A DNA stretch of 64,000 nt, from the IMG/VR virus record IMGVR_UViG_3300031998_000070, positions 3,713 to 67,712 of that record, one strand, 5' to 3'. The notes under the pieces were generated by a model that saw only the letters and a list, made by a program, of their open reading frames with translations, had not been told where the DNA came from and did no database searches. The position numbers and the translations under genes are program-made. This DNA is from a virus (Duplodnaviria; Caudoviricetes). Positions 49,757-54,867 of the stretch are shown piece by piece (the first letter of the stretch is position 1; the number at the start of each line of letters is the position of its first letter).

Positions 49757-50656
49757 ATGGCATTTGATTTTTATTTTGCAGGTACTCAGTGTCAAGAGAG
49801 TACAGAACTTTTGAAAGATCTGGGATGTAATGTATTGAAGTCGTATGTTAATGATAGAAAAGAGATTAACAAATGGTTTCAGTATAAGAAGGACGGATGG
49901 ACAGGTAAGTTACTCATAGACAACGGAGAATTTACATTCCATAGAAAAGGCGGATCCCTTGATATTGATGAATATATTAAATGGATAAACGATAATGATG
50001 AATATATTGATTACGCAATAGCATTAGACAGCATACCAGGTAAATGGGGAGAACCCAAAACCGCAGAGCACGTTAAAATAAGCGCCGAGAAAACATGGCA
50101 GAACTATTTATATATGAGAGAGCATGTCAAATCTCCTGAGAAGTTATTACCTGTTTTCCATATGGGAGAGAGTTTTGATAATTTAAGAAGATTCCTAGAC
50201 TTCGAAGATTTGCAATATATGTGTATTTCGGGGAGCAAAGAAATCACTAATAAGCAGAGAGAAGATTGGTACGAGAAATGTTTTTATGTAATAAGTCATA
50301 GTAAGCACCCAGACATTAAAATACATTGTTTGGGTAGTGCTACACTATCAAATGCAATTAAATATCCATTTACAAGTATGGATGCAACTAGCTGGATAAT
50401 GACAGGTGCGAATGGAAGTATATTAACAGATTATGGAATTGTATATTTAGGTGATGAATGCAAAACATTGAAAGCAACACTTCCTCCAGAAGGACTTAAA
50501 TCATTAGAGGAGTATTGTAAGAACTTTGGTATAAATTTAGATGATATGGGTAAAGATTATAAGCAGAGAACTTGTTTCAATATTCATTACCTATATGATA
50601 AAAGTAAGAACACACACTACAATGAGGTAAAATTCAGAAAAAGGAGGTTATTCTAA
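49757..50656 (+). CDS. dpdA: DpdA-like DNA 7-deazaguanine transglycosylase (TGT fold)
   Basis: LLIDNGEF, IALDSIPG, LPVFHMGE, KIHCLG and SMDATSW; adjacent to queC/D/E and folE. Confidence 0.75.
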   Translation: MAFDFYFAGTQCQESTELLKDLGCNVLKSYVNDRKEINKWFQYKKDGWTGKLLIDNGEFTFHRKGGSLDIDEYIKWINDNDEYIDYAIALDSIPGKWGEPKTAEHVKISAEKTWQNYLYMREHVKSPEKLLPVFHMGESFDNLRRFLDFEDLQYMCISGSKEITNKQREDWYEKCFYVISHSKHPDIKIHCLGSATLSNAIKYPFTSMDATSWIMTGANGSILTDYGIVYLGDECKTLKATLPPEGLKSLEEYCKNFGINLDDMGKDYKQRTCFNIHYLYDKSKNTHYNEVKFRKRRLF

Positions 50657-51375
50657 TGAAGAAAATTTTACTATATTCCGGAGGGATGGATAGCTGGCTG
50701 ATTGATAAGTTGTGGAATCCAGATCTAAGATTATATGTGGATATGCACACAAAGTATTCAGAATCAGAGATCCAAAAGATTAAGAAGCAGAATAGTGATG
50801 TACTCATAGTTGATTTCCCTCTTGGACAATGGGAAAGAGATGATGCAATTATACCTTTACGCAATCTGTATTTGCTAATGGTTGTTTGCAACATAACAGG
50901 GGATGAGGACATTGAATTGTGTTACGGAGCAACCGCAGGAGACAGATCCAAAGACCAATCTTTAGAGTTTCAGCACAAAGCAGAGGAGCTGTTAAATTAT
51001 TTGTATCAGCCGCAATCTTGGATACCTAATGGTAAGAATATAAAGATAATAACAGAGTTTAGACAGTACACGAAAGCACAGATGCTTCAGATGTATTTAG
51101 ATAAGGGTGGAACACTAGAGGAAGCATTTAATGGGTCTTTAAGTTGTTATCACCCAGACGAGAATTTAAAAGAGTGCTGGAATTGTAAACCTTGTTTTAG
51201 AAAGTTTGTGGCATTCGCATATTGTGGATATGAATTTGATAAAGACATAATTGATAAGAATATGAAATATATCAAAGAGCATATTGCACCAGAACTAGAA
51301 GATGGAATCTATAGATGCCCAGATGAGGACAACGAGATACGAACAGTTATTGCGAAATATGATGAGGAGGAATAA
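50656..51375 (+). CDS. queC: QueC-like 7-cyano-7-deazaguanine synthase
   Basis: PP-loop LLYSGGMDS, IPLRN, TKAQM and SCY...CWNCKPCFRK zinc site. Confidence 0.8.
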   Translation: MKKILLYSGGMDSWLIDKLWNPDLRLYVDMHTKYSESEIQKIKKQNSDVLIVDFPLGQWERDDAIIPLRNLYLLMVVCNITGDEDIELCYGATAGDRSKDQSLEFQHKAEELLNYLYQPQSWIPNGKNIKIITEFRQYTKAQMLQMYLDKGGTLEEAFNGSLSCYHPDENLKECWNCKPCFRKFVAFAYCGYEFDKDIIDKNMKYIKEHIAPELEDGIYRCPDEDNEIRTVIAKYDEEE

Positions 51376-51377
51376 TA

Positions 51378-52256
51378 ATGTTTGGTCCGAATACAGTATT
51401 TGATGATTATGTATGTCCAAATTTTAATCATCGAGATAAAGAATTTTTCGAACTGTTTTCAAGTGTTCGTACTAAATTTGCAAACACATTTGGATTGCAA
51501 GATTACGACATTTTATTCATACCAGGTTCGGCTTCGGTTGGAATGGAAAGCATAATATACTCAATACTTAATCCAATAGAAGTTACTGGATGGAATGGTT
51601 CGTTCACACGCAGATGGAAAAACTTAGTTAGTAATTATCCAAAGAGTCGTTTAATACCGAAGGTGAATCTGTATTGCTTATATGAGACATCTTGTTCATC
51701 ATTTTATAAGCAAGATGATGGACTATGTATTGTAGATGCAGTTAGCGCATTTCCTTACTACGATATACCTAAGAATAATACATTGGCATTCGTAACGTGT
51801 TTAAATAAGCAACTAGGTTCATATCCAGGTTTGGCGGTCGTAGGAGTAAGAAAGGACGGATGGAGCCATTTTAAGAGCAACACCGAAGACCAGTCCTATT
51901 TGAATTTAGCTAGATATAAAGAATATGCCGACAAAAATCAGTTCCCTATGACAGCTCCTGTATATATATTACAGCACTTTGATAAGGTACTAGATACTTA
52001 CGATATTGAGGAATTAAAAGAAGCTATTAGATATAGAAGCTGGTATTTAGCAGATATAATTAAAGGGGACAATCTAATTGGAGATGCAATAGGTCCTACC
52101 ATAACAGTTAAACCCAATGTATTACCACAATCCATATGTGAGAGATTTTCATTATATGGGTATCATGCAGGTAGACCAAATATACAGATATTCACTTATA
52201 GTGAGACCGCATATAGATACGCAAAGTTTTCAGCAGCACTGAGGAAAGTTTTATGA
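51378..52256 (+). CDS. class V PLP-dependent enzyme (PhnW/SerC/AGT-like)
   Basis: FGP, HRDKEF, PGSASVGME, YETS, IVDAVSAF and NKQLGSYPG (PLP lysine). Confidence 0.8.
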   Translation: MFGPNTVFDDYVCPNFNHRDKEFFELFSSVRTKFANTFGLQDYDILFIPGSASVGMESIIYSILNPIEVTGWNGSFTRRWKNLVSNYPKSRLIPKVNLYCLYETSCSSFYKQDDGLCIVDAVSAFPYYDIPKNNTLAFVTCLNKQLGSYPGLAVVGVRKDGWSHFKSNTEDQSYLNLARYKEYADKNQFPMTAPVYILQHFDKVLDTYDIEELKEAIRYRSWYLADIIKGDNLIGDAIGPTITVKPNVLPQSICERFSLYGYHAGRPNIQIFTYSETAYRYAKFSAALRKVL

Positions 52257-52765
52257 TAGTAGCAATAGATTACGACGGAACGATTACTAATGATATTACT
52301 GGTCAAATAACAGAGGACGCAAAAATCTATATACCGTTATTATATAAGGCAGGATGCACACTTATATTATGGACGGCAAGAGCAGAACCTTATTATACAG
52401 AAGCGGTCAATAAGCTGAAGCATAGCGGATTATGGAGATACTTTTCAGAAGACTTATTTCAGCATGGAGTTACTGGAAAGATACCAGCAGATGTATATTT
52501 AGATGATAAAAGTGTTGTGGGTGAATTTAATTGGTCAATTTATTACGAGCACATTATGAAGATAGGAGGAATTGATATGGCAACTACATTGAACTATGAA
52601 TGCACCACATCTACAGGAGAAATAATTATCGTAAAAACATTGCCGGAGGCTAAGAACGTAATAAAAGAGAAAGGAGGAACCTATAAGGTACTATACAATT
52701 ATAAGCCATCAGAATTAGAAGCGTTTGCTATAAAGAATCATAGAAAGCATGGTGATATGAGATGA
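52253..52765 (+). CDS. HAD-family phosphatase-like domain plus a C-terminal extension
   Basis: IAIDYDGT-type motif I (VAIDYDGT), LWTAR and KIPADVYLDDK. Confidence 0.75.
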   Translation: MIVAIDYDGTITNDITGQITEDAKIYIPLLYKAGCTLILWTARAEPYYTEAVNKLKHSGLWRYFSEDLFQHGVTGKIPADVYLDDKSVVGEFNWSIYYEHIMKIGGIDMATTLNYECTTSTGEIIIVKTLPEAKNVIKEKGGTYKVLYNYKPSELEAFAIKNHRKHGDMR

Positions 52766-53244: not shown

Positions 53245-53256
53245 GGAGGAATATAG

Positions 53257-53616
53257 ATGTATTACGTATCAAAAAGAATGGAGATAGCAGGAGCACATTG
53301 TTTGACATTACCATATGAATCTAAATGTGAGAACTTGCATGGGCATAACTGGATTGTAACTGTATATTGCAGAAGCAAGACTCTTACAGATTATGGTATG
53401 GTAATTGATTTCACACATATTAAGAAAGAAATACATGATGTATTAGACCATCATAATATTAACTTAGTTATTATTGATAGAAATCCTACAGCTGAGAACA
53501 TGGCTAGGTGGATATGTGATAAGGTGAATGACATTATTAAAGTAGGTGAGTGCTGGAAGGTGACTGTACAGGAATCAGAAGGCAATATAGCAGAATATGT
53601 GAGGGAAGACGAATGA
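53257..53616 (+). CDS. queD: 6-carboxytetrahydropterin synthase
   Basis: AHCL...CENLHGHNW, MVIDF, LDHH and NPTAEN...ESEG. Confidence 0.9.
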   Translation: MYYVSKRMEIAGAHCLTLPYESKCENLHGHNWIVTVYCRSKTLTDYGMVIDFTHIKKEIHDVLDHHNINLVIIDRNPTAENMARWICDKVNDIIKVGECWKVTVQESEGNIAEYVREDE

Positions 53617-54290
53617 GAGTAAACGAAATATTTAGATCTATTGAAGGGGAAGGAAAGAGAGCAGGACTACCGTGTACATTTATAAGATTGTTTGGGTGCA
53701 ATATTAGGTGTAGTTATTGTGACTCACAGTACGCTTGTATAGGAACTGATTATACCGAAATGAGCATCCCGCAGATACTTGAGAAAGTAAAATCTTTTGA
53801 AGTAACCAATGTGACGGTGACTGGTGGGGAGCCACTTATACATCCGGGAATAGAAAAGTTATTAAATGCTTTATTGGATGAAGGTTATTCAGTAAATGTA
53901 GAGACGAATGGGACGAAAGAACCTTTAAACTTGGGTAGATGGGAACCTGTGTATGGAAGAAACTATAAGTATATGTCAGACATATTTTACACCATGGATT
54001 ATAAATGTCCTTCAAGTGGGATGGAGCACTACATGAATAAATCCATTATAGATAAGCTCACTAAAGACGATGTTTTGAAATTCGTAGTAGGTTCATATGA
54101 GGATCTGAATGCAGCATTAGAAGTTATTGAGTCCATTAAATCGAAACCGCAAATATATTTCAGTCCTGTATTTGGTAAGATAGAAGCATCTGATATAGTT
54201 CAGTACCTAATAGACAAGAAATTATATGATTGTAAAGTTCAGTTGCAGATGCACAAATACATATGGGATCCACAGGAGAGAGGAGTATAA
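53613..54290 (+). CDS. queE: 7-carboxy-7-deazaguanine synthase (radical SAM)
   Basis: [36 protein letters not shown] and QMHKYIW. Confidence 0.92.
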
Positions 54291-54291
54291 T

Positions 54292-54867
54292 ATGAGAACT
54301 ATTGATACCGAAAAAATAGAGCAGGCTGTTAAGATGCTACTGGAAGCCTTAGGTGACGATCCTAATAGAGAAGGGCTGATAGAGACTCCTAAGAGAGTAG
54401 CAAAGATGTATAACGAAGTGTTCGAGGGCATGAAGTATACCAATGAAGAAATTGCTAAGATGTTTGACAAGTGCTTCGAGGACACTACGACAGGAGATCT
54501 TGTAATTATTGGTCCTATTGATATATTCAGTTATTGTGAACACCATATGGCACTTATGTATGATATGCAGGTGCATGTAGGATATATACCTAATGGAAAG
54601 GTAATTGGACTTTCAAAGGTAGCAAGGATAGCAGATATGTGTGCGAAGCGACTTCAGTTGCAAGAGCGTATAGGAACAGACATATATGAAGTATTAAAGC
54701 GCATACTTAATACAGAGGACATAATTGTAGTAATTGAAGGAAGCCACAGTTGCATGACAGCAAGAGGTATTAAAAAGGTTAATAGCAGAACAAAGACGGC
54801 ATGCTGTAAAGGCGTATTTAAGACAAGCGGAGCACTTAGACAAGAGTTTTATGATTTGATTAAATAA
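54292..54867 (+). CDS. folE: GTP cyclohydrolase I
   Basis: [33 protein letters not shown] and HSCMTARG. Confidence 0.95.

Follow-up and report, generated by a model that had tools for sequence, protein, structure and literature searches.

The window analysed here is a stretch of 64,000 nucleotides (nt) that makes up most of a 67.7-kb phage record (IMG/VR record IMGVR_UViG_3300031998_000070) rated as complete by CheckV. Between a split polA gene and the sliding clamp gene, its + strand carries eight translationally coupled genes (49757–54867), which encode a DpdA-type DNA guanine transglycosylase, a divergent QueC-like ATPase, a pyridoxal 5´-phosphate (PLP) enzyme, a haloacid dehalogenase (HAD) phosphatase, a guanine deaminase, QueD, QueE and FolE. 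This operon probably makes a 7-deazaguanine derivative with a side chain that is not yet described. Our best guess for the product is an N-substituted 7-carboxamido-7-deazaguanine, to which the plain deoxynucleosides of 7-cyano-7-deazaguanine (preQ0) and 7-amido-7-deazaguanine (ADG), dPreQ0 and dADG, are the alternative. In the reading that we favour, to which we give somewhat less than an even chance, DpdA would insert the amide into DNA and the deaminase would serve as a sink for guanine. The QueC-like protein, the PLP enzyme and the HAD phosphatase would act as one tailoring set that works like the glucuronamide set of Campylobacter jejuni. An earlier sequence-only reading of the window, whose gene order, span, gene identities and tight coupling are confirmed here, had assigned the PLP enzyme, the phosphatase and the deaminase together to an undescribed derivative. 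That interpretation is partly supported: the idea holds for the PLP enzyme and the phosphatase, but not for the deaminase, and the three genes do not form one tailoring block.

The second gene of the operon (50656–51375; 239 amino acids (aa)) had been taken as an ordinary queC; instead, its product belongs to a divergent clade. It matches PF06508 with 43 bits over residues 64–188 only and scores 21.7 bits with TIGR00364, for which the cut-off is 150.3, and a PDB sequence search with it found no solved QueC. The AlphaFold2 (AF2) model, with a predicted local distance difference test (pLDDT) score of 89, is closest to QueC (2pg3/3bl5), Cap9 (9nto) and QatC, and Cap9 is the fourth fold match, right behind the QueC entries. 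According to a 2026 survey of the QueC family (PMC13329287), the canonical QueC signature comprises SGGxDS, YxQxHxxE, VPxRN, YPDC and a C(x)8CxxCxxC zinc site, and Y35 (in YxQxHxxE), R99 and Y131 (in YPDC) are essential in Escherichia coli QueC. The QueC-like protein retains SGGMDS, IPLRN and the Cys4 zinc site (C164...C174xxC177xxC180), the first spacer of which has 9 residues rather than 8. YVDMHTKY stands in the place of YxQxHxxE, with the Gln and the Glu missing, SKDQ(S) replaces YPDC after a 7-residue deletion, and about 50 extra residues form a helical region at the C-terminus. The clade is large, with 743 matches of metagenomic origin, and is also present on IMG/VR viral contigs; just four GenBank phage records match it, and the sections of the survey (PMC13329287) that were consulted contain no description of it. 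Judged by these motifs, the QueC-like protein is a non-canonical PP-loop ATPase from a large phage clade that lacks the YPDC motif.

The strongest hint of a chemistry that may differ from preQ0 synthesis is this divergence together with the co-variation of a single pocket residue with the PLP gene. The loci and contigs compared with the window are designated by L numbers, and the survey of QueC-like genes covers 84 viral loci, 61 of them with non-identical QueC-like proteins. Just four of these 61 sequences, those of the window, L122, L127 and L186, have Gln as residue 101, all the remaining ones have Lys, and each of the four Gln101 genomes carries the PLP gene. Instead of YPDC, the PLP-linked proteins have the motif GDR-S-(K/L)-D-Q-S, in contrast to GDR-V-L-D-K-S in almost all others. 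Of the 84 loci, only the window, L122 and L127 (which is also the contig of L024) have the PLP gene next to the QueC-like gene, and their QueC-like proteins form one clade in a quick tree (SH-aLRT 99). L186, the phage of locus L011, has no extra genes in its operon and carries the PLP gene 6 kb upstream; it lies apart from the window clade, and the four Gln101 sequences occupy two separate branches of the quick tree. When 30 representative QueC-like phages were searched over their whole records, the PLP gene was found in 2 and was absent from 28, 11 of which are at least 90% complete. In the Cap9 structure, an Asp forms a hydrogen bond with the deazaguanine, and position 101 adjoins this Asp. 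The co-variation is evidence, drawn from few events and a quick tree, that the PLP enzyme and the QueC-like active site may serve the same chemistry.

The PLP gene (51378–52256; 292 aa) encodes a compact class-V enzyme of fold type I that appears transaminase-like from weak NCBIfam matches and its AF2 fold. No Pfam family, Aminotran_5 included, matches the protein. The NCBIfam matches are to pyridoxamine-pyruvate aminotransferase, PhnW and SerC, with equivalog scores of 19–53 bits against cut-offs of 253–650. The AF2 model (pLDDT 96) can be superimposed on the AGT, SerC and PhnW transaminases with VIA Z 27–28 and a root-mean-square deviation of about 3 Å over ~290 aligned residues. In an alignment of 31 sequences of this ~290-aa family, the PLP lysine (K144), the Asp for binding the pyridine nitrogen (D120), H18 and R19 are invariant, and H18-R19 align with the SHR motif of C. 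jejuni SerC. The same alignment has no conserved Arg in the shortened C-terminal domain, i.e. after R19. In SerC, AGT and PhnW, an Arg of the C-terminal domain binds the substrate carboxylate or phosphonate. About 200 homologues were found, some of which are fused to an S-adenosylmethionine-dependent methyltransferase. As a single query against viral contigs the PLP protein retrieved nothing, and the homologous loci were reached only by an alignment search; a tblastn search of GenBank phages also gave no match, so there is no cultured phage as a test bed.

A PP-loop ATPase beside a short class-V-fold PLP protein is also the arrangement of YcfA and YcfC in 6-thioguanine biosynthesis, where YcfA acts on the C6 carbonyl of GTP (PMC12494993). 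By a similar mechanism, the PP-loop enzyme of the window would adenylate a carbonyl and add, for example, cysteine, and the PLP enzyme would cleave the adduct as a lyase to leave a thio derivative such as a thiocarboxamide. The near-equal length of the two PLP proteins (292 aa here, 291 aa in YcfC), a weak profile match of the PLP family to YcfC (9kq4; E 0.0011, 21.7 bits) and the presence of YcfA (9kq7) among the fold matches of the QueC-like model are consistent with this idea. In contrast, YcfC has an essential His147 before its lysine (H147-K148), where the PLP family has an invariant N143-K144, and the PLP model matches transaminases best (Z 28), with YcfC not among the 50 matches listed. 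A thio derivative also leaves no role for the HAD phosphatase, and we regard this route as highly improbable.

Two other functions of the PLP enzyme were considered and rejected. A cysteine desulfurase for the Fe-S cluster of QueE is at odds with the best sequence and fold matches, which are transaminases, and with the invariant Asn before the PLP lysine. The formation of preQ1 from a 7-formyl intermediate was discarded because the operon has no reductase to yield the aldehyde. A PhnW-like phosphonate route is one possible source of an amine. PhnW is structurally close to the PLP enzyme; no phosphoenolpyruvate mutase or phosphonopyruvate decarboxylase occurs among the Pfam-annotated clusters of PLP neighbours, many clusters being unannotated.

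The neighbourhoods of the PLP gene were compared in 119 loci, 105 of which have non-identical PLP proteins. Of these 105 loci, 62 have an ATP-grasp gene immediately upstream of the PLP gene and 60 have one immediately downstream; the ATP-grasp neighbourhoods belong to nonulosonic-acid and glycan islands, where NeuB, a CMP-transferase, MptE-like genes and glycosyltransferases are also found. The two fully annotated gut loci of the Lachnospiraceae type have the order ATP-grasp, GT2, HAD (PF12710; unannotated in L002), PLP enzyme and CapK-like adenylating enzyme, and a HAD gene directly precedes the PLP gene in 13 loci overall. The PLP gene stands among 7-deazaguanine genes in about eight distinct phage locus types, and it is immediately beside QueC in the window, L122, L024/L127, L017, L021 and L005/L073. 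On this gene order, the PLP enzyme usually adjoins a predicted ATP-dependent carboxylate-activating enzyme, which in the phages would be QueC.

The triad of ATP-grasp, PLP enzyme and ATP-grasp is the main habitat of the family (L009, L012, L014, L035, L082 and about 55 more loci). These islands also carry GT1/GT2 and PIG-L genes and lie on marine contigs, some of them IMG/VR viral, and we found no characterisation of the triad. The ESM Atlas cluster nearest to the PLP family is 91% viral among the members with a taxon record. In the marine phage L005, a 550-aa DUF5824 protein separates the PLP gene and FolE.

The fourth gene (52253–52765) encodes a cap-less HAD phosphatase with a C-terminal extension of about 65 aa. 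The protein matches NF046079 (the BT0820 family; E 1.5e-13, 51 bits against a cut-off of 165) and PDB entry 2obb (E 3e-8), and the motifs DYDGT (residues 6–10, the DxDxT nucleophile), WTAR and DD(K) can be read from its sequence. Residues 1–105 form a minimal cap-less core that is homologous to the HAD located after the QueC-like gene in many phage loci. The last ~65 residues (52568–52765) are a separate domain that travels with the PLP/HAD pair, and in L122 (11555–11770) the counterpart of this extension is a 72-aa open reading frame (ORF) of its own between the PLP gene and the HAD core. A small HAD gene is near the QueC-like gene in 19 of the 61 non-identical loci, usually directly after it and in several architectures, both with and without the PLP gene. 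Small HAD-like genes are present as well in the marine phages where the PLP gene is paired with QueC or DpdA (136 aa in L005 and 134 aa in L020, both with DxDG). In gut and marine phages as well as in gut bacteria, HADs of three subfamilies thus adjoin the gene for the PLP enzyme or for QueC, and this convergence of predicted phosphatases suggests a phosphorylated intermediate. The match of H18-R19 to the SHR motif of SerC and the lack of a conserved C-terminal Arg in the PLP family point the same way.

The deaminase (52762–53244; 160 aa) is a GuaD-type enzyme of the cytidine deaminase (CDA) fold (1tiy/1wkq, E 2.7e-33) and is ~55% identical over 114 residues to Bacillus subtilis GuaD. It contains H57-A-E59, PCPMC (C87 and C90), GGPFGA and a C-terminal Y160, and it has counterparts of GuaD Asn42, Asp114, Trp92 and the C-terminal Tyr. 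The closest metagenomic GuaD-type proteins are 65–75% identical, those named as Lachnospiraceae 65–69%, and some are named as Bacillota. A copy with 75% identity occupies the corresponding slot in the sister phage L207/L208, where the order is PolA, DpdA (404 aa), canonical QueC (PF06508, 180 bits), a 51-aa ORF, a phosphoribosyltransferase, deaminase, QueD, QueE, FolE and the clamp. The block from the deaminase to FolE is common to both phages, in contrast to DpdA, QueC and the tailoring genes, which differ between them as one exchanged set. Among 72 non-identical viral loci with a GuaD-like gene, 55 have 7-deazaguanine (que or dpdA) genes within 7 kb; DpdA was counted in 42 loci, canonical QueC in 39, YhhQ in 18, a phosphoribosyltransferase in 11 and QueF in 10. 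The deaminase accompanies every flavour of the pathway; therefore, its substrate is more likely the shared guanine than any one derivative. On this distribution, the enzyme most likely serves as a sink for displaced guanine, a competitor of the base that DpdA inserts, rather than as a tailoring enzyme. The sequence-only reading had looked to co-occurrence of the three genes with dpdA and que genes in other phages, and such co-occurrence is found for each of them, for the deaminase in these 55 loci, for the PLP gene in the phage locus types and for the HAD in the QueC-like loci and marine phages counted above.

The same earlier reading had offered a deaminated base of the 7-deazaxanthine type as one product, for which the deaminase would act on preQ0, on 7-carboxy-7-deazaguanine (CDG) or on the tailored base. 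The position of the gene inside the operon, directly upstream of queD, is compatible with such a role, and guanine deaminases of the CDA fold accept analogues such as 8-azaguanine. The proposal is very unlikely given the close relation to GuaD, with the HAE and PCPMC motifs and the GuaD residue counterparts in place, and given that the gene accompanies modules with different end products (QueF, canonical QueC and YhhQ salvage). Furthermore, the pocket of DpdA and tRNA-guanine transglycosylases reads the 2-amino group of guanine-like bases. Inside DpdA modules of viral contigs (L209–L270), the deaminase is often directly beside a phosphoribosyltransferase; as a speculation, the pair might recycle guanine through xanthine to xanthosine monophosphate and so feed GTP to FolE. 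A literature search for guanine deaminase together with DpdA or deazaguanine found nothing relevant, and neither did one for pyridoxal and 7-deazaguanine in phages, with incomplete coverage in both cases, so that novelty is not proven.

These observations can be arranged into a mechanism, the core of which is well supported by sequence: FolE, QueD and QueE are predicted to supply CDG from GTP, and a DpdA of the Dp-1 type is predicted to exchange guanine for a 7-deazaguanine base in phage DNA. In the proposed tailoring steps, the PLP enzyme would aminate a phosphorylated carbonyl compound, the QueC-like enzyme would adenylate the carboxylate of CDG and couple it to the resulting amine instead of ammonia, and the HAD would take off the phosphate. 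DpdA would then put the N-substituted 7-carboxamido-7-deazaguanine into DNA, while free guanine, including that released by DpdA, would be deaminated, which would remove the competitor and make the exchange effectively one-way. The mechanism gains plausibility from two precedents. Cap9 and QatC belong to the QueC family and join CDG to the N-terminal amines of proteins (PMC13329287; bioRxiv 10.1101/2025.04.06.647259). In C. jejuni, serinol phosphate produced by Cj1437 from dihydroxyacetone phosphate is joined to a carboxylate by the C-terminal domain of Cj1438, after which the HAD Cj1435 removes the phosphate (PMC11800397). In its most specific form, which we put forward tentatively and hold to be clearly less than evenly likely, some guanines of the DNA are replaced by a CDG amide with a small hydroxyalkyl group on the nitrogen of the C7 carboxamide (for example from ethanolamine or serinol), the QueC-family ligase has switched from ammonia to an amine from a dedicated transaminase, and the phage guanine deaminases are a widespread, unrecognised device that makes the DpdA exchange irreversible.

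Several observations weigh against this mechanism. Many QueC-like loci are minimal, and the clade may simply make preQ0 or ADG. The Lys/Gln101 co-variation comprises four sequences and at most two events on the quick tree. A transaminase that does not have the usual carboxylate-binding Arg is odd, since the amino-acid donor must still bind, and both the amine and the fit of a bulky amide in the DpdA pocket are postulates. In many phages devoid of the PLP gene, a HAD still follows the QueC-like gene, at times with a phosphoribosyltransferase next to it (L123, L124, L128 and L131), and these loci fit a nucleotide or DNA-end phosphatase equally well. Cap-less HADs, moreover, often act on macromolecules. 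This last point, together with the location of the operon in the replication module, would also suit a scheme in which DpdA inserts preQ0, ADG or CDG, with the side chain remodelled on the polymer by the PLP enzyme and the HAD. PLP enzymes are reported to act on DNA-borne groups in thymidine hypermodification (PMC8989533, PMC11472151). However, the operon encodes no kinase or other activating enzyme that could provide DNA with a leaving group, the PLP family occurs mainly in small-molecule and glycan clusters, and the co-variation is with the pocket of the QueC-like protein, which handles the free base. Remodelling after insertion is improbable.

The minimal loci support the main alternative, in which the DNA carries dPreQ0 or dADG, the QueC-like protein being a divergent QueC and the three extra genes metabolic helpers, which is possible but on balance unlikely. 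The deaminase and the HAD would then manage pools of guanine, nucleotides or DNA ends, the HAD for example as a (d)GMP nucleotidase or 3´-phosphatase, and the PLP enzyme would supply an unrelated metabolite. The commonest architecture around the QueC-like gene is the one with no extras, the HAD occurs in many loci that lack the PLP gene and has weak similarities to HAD_PNKP and NT5C, and the deaminase is clearly a general accessory. The HAD family also occurs in SPO1-like and Porphyromonas phages, and neither genus is among the ten commonest in the DpdA search. In contrast, a plain base leaves three features unexplained: the position of the PLP gene right next to QueC in several phages that are unrelated, and next to ATP-grasp ligases in other settings; the change of residue 101 exactly where the PLP gene is present; and the joint exchange of DpdA, QueC and the tailoring genes between sister phages.

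The minimal loci have the order ParB, DpdA, QueC-like, QueD, QueE and FolE, and ~24 of them are near-copies of one lineage. Elsewhere a phosphoribosyltransferase (PF00156), a protein with weak similarity to glycosyltransferases, a YhhQ/Vut_1 transporter or a QueT transporter is found near the QueC-like gene. The stretch from the QueC-like gene to queD is a variable accessory slot, as its occupants differ among the loci. In gut phage relatives with records of up to about 200 kb (L123, 9118–11463; L124, 9131–11717; L128; L131), a protein of 283–291 aa with weak GT2/TAGT-like similarity and a phosphoribosyltransferase (PF00156) are present instead of the PLP enzyme, in addition to the HAD; these sets may point to other deazaguanine derivatives or to a nucleotide-level route. 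The possibility that the 283–289-aa gene before the QueC-like gene in L123 and L124 encodes a divergent PLP enzyme was rejected, given an hhalign probability of 0.4% and the weak resemblance of its product to glycosyltransferases. Precursor transporters of the YhhQ/Vut_1 or QueT type are encoded by some other QueC-like/DpdA phages (L182, 7804–8454; L193, 8436–8873), and loci of this type have no queD, queE or folE within 7 kb. If the base taken up is preQ0, a QueC-family enzyme in such a phage is odd.

The first gene (49757–50656) encodes a DpdA-type DNA guanine transglycosylase of 299 aa that matches phrog_887 (E 1.1e-43). Over its full length it is 40% identical to DpdA of Bacillus phage Flasso and 37% identical to that of Streptococcus phage Dp-1, and it has no Pfam, NCBIfam or PDB sequence match. 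Among characterised DpdA proteins that of Dp-1 is the nearest, and the DNA of Dp-1 carries dPreQ1 (PMC6884629). In the 100-kb relative L024, the DpdA frame is split into two adjacent ORFs (12209–12382 and 12386–13048), as might result from a stop codon, a frameshift or an error in the sequencing. The marine phage L005 encodes a 452-aa DpdA-like protein (5567–6922) with a C-terminal XkdF-like Peptidase_S78_2 domain.

The last three genes encode QueD (6-carboxytetrahydropterin synthase; 53257–53616, 119 aa; PF01242, 107 bits; TIGR03367, 82.8 bits), QueE (radical-SAM 7-carboxy-7-deazaguanine synthase; 53613–54290) and FolE (GTP cyclohydrolase I; 54292–54867; PF01227, 219.7 bits). QueE reaches 241.5 bits with TIGR03963 (Clostridial-type; cut-off 260), in an alignment that begins at residue 22 of the longest ORF, and FolE exceeds the family cut-off of NF006826 with 235.7 bits. 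The junctions between the eight genes are, in order, TAATG, a 2-nt gap, ATGA, ATGA, a 12-nt gap, ATGA and a 1-nt gap, and each is preceded by a GGAGG-like ribosome-binding site, which is GAGGGA at the queD/queE ATGA. The most likely start of QueE is the ATG at 53613, which overlaps the queD stop, and that of FolE is the ATG at 54292, 1 nt past the queE stop; both are predicted in preference to the longest ORFs. A scan for promoters and terminators found sites no commoner than in shuffled sequence, and a single hairpin within the PLP gene is probably due to chance.

The + strand carries nearly all the long ORFs of the window, and the operon belongs to a replication module at ~42–59 kb with DnaB helicase, primase, PolA, the sliding clamp and RecA. 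Its location directly after polA and before the clamp, as first read, is correct; polA itself (46487–49743) is in two pieces of 527 aa and 298 aa, with a free-standing GIY-YIG endonuclease gene (48073–48768) between them. A two-piece PolA is also found in the sister phage L207, and L123 has PolA fragments around a GIY-YIG gene. No QueF (PF14489) or class-I glutamine amidotransferase (GATase) domain (PF00117) was matched anywhere in the 67.7-kb record, which bears out the earlier statement that these partners are missing. None of the eight operon proteins matched an ArcS, QueF-L or DpdC/L/M/N family, although these families were not searched for. The window contains no tRNA genes, and compared with GenBank phages the operon DNA gives just four short fragments, from human faecal contigs. 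The arrangement is not due to chance, because the same or similar gene orders recur in the related phage contigs L122, L024/L127 and L207; among the loci examined, the full set of QueC-like, PLP, HAD and deaminase genes occurs in the window only. The phage is an uncultured gut phage with a Lachnospiraceae-like Firmicute as its probable host.

Phage DNA is known to contain eight 7-deazaguanine derivatives, every one of which, when discovered, brought with it a new enzyme and a new restriction resistance. If the proposed mechanism is true, the QueC family includes a small-molecule amine ligase that extends the protein-deazaguanylation chemistry of Cap9 and QatC to DNA bases. Neither such a ligase nor a guanine deaminase as a common partner of DpdA was found in the literature searched. 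A deaminase that acts as a guanine sink may be part of the reason why the exchange goes further in some phages. Both ideas would improve the prediction of DNA modification in gut viromes, which bears on sequencing bias, on evasion of restriction and CRISPR, and on the choice of phages.

As in the described phage DpdA systems (PMC6884629, PMC10516641), FolE, QueD, QueE, a QueC-family enzyme and DpdA are encoded in one operon of the replication module. The window differs from these systems in that it has no QueF or class-I GATase domain, in that its QueC belongs to the divergent clade without YPDC, and in the addition of the PLP, HAD and guanine deaminase genes; in Hutinet 2019 (PMC6884629) and Cui 2023 (PMC10516641), no deaminase, PLP or pyridoxal is mentioned and phosphatase appears as a reagent only. 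The deaminase shares its zinc motifs, GGPFGA, the C-terminal Tyr and near-equal length with GuaD of B. subtilis but is phage-encoded and lies inside a base-exchange operon, a context of GuaD for which we found no counterpart in the literature searched. YcfA–YcfC likewise pairs a PP-loop ATPase for a guanine-type substrate with a short class-V-fold PLP enzyme; however, YcfC acts as a C-S lyase, for which the His that precedes its PLP lysine is essential, and the enzyme of the window has Asn at this position and is structurally nearest to transaminases. Cap9 and QatC share the QueC fold, the PP-loop and the zinc site with the QueC-like protein, and their coupling of adenylated CDG to an amine other than ammonia is the step proposed for it. 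Their amine is a protein N-terminus, and they function in bacterial defence (type IV cyclic-oligonucleotide-based anti-phage signalling systems and Qat), whereas the QueC-like protein is phage-encoded beside DpdA; Cap9 keeps YxDC and QatC has large extensions, and the QueC-like protein, with its own motif set, falls in neither cluster. The glucuronamide set of C. jejuni offers the same three-step logic of transaminase, ATP-dependent amide ligase and HAD phosphatase. The likeness is one of analogy only; the carboxylate of C. jejuni belongs to a sugar rather than a nucleobase and the ligase is the C-terminal domain of Cj1438 rather than a PP-loop enzyme of the QueC family.

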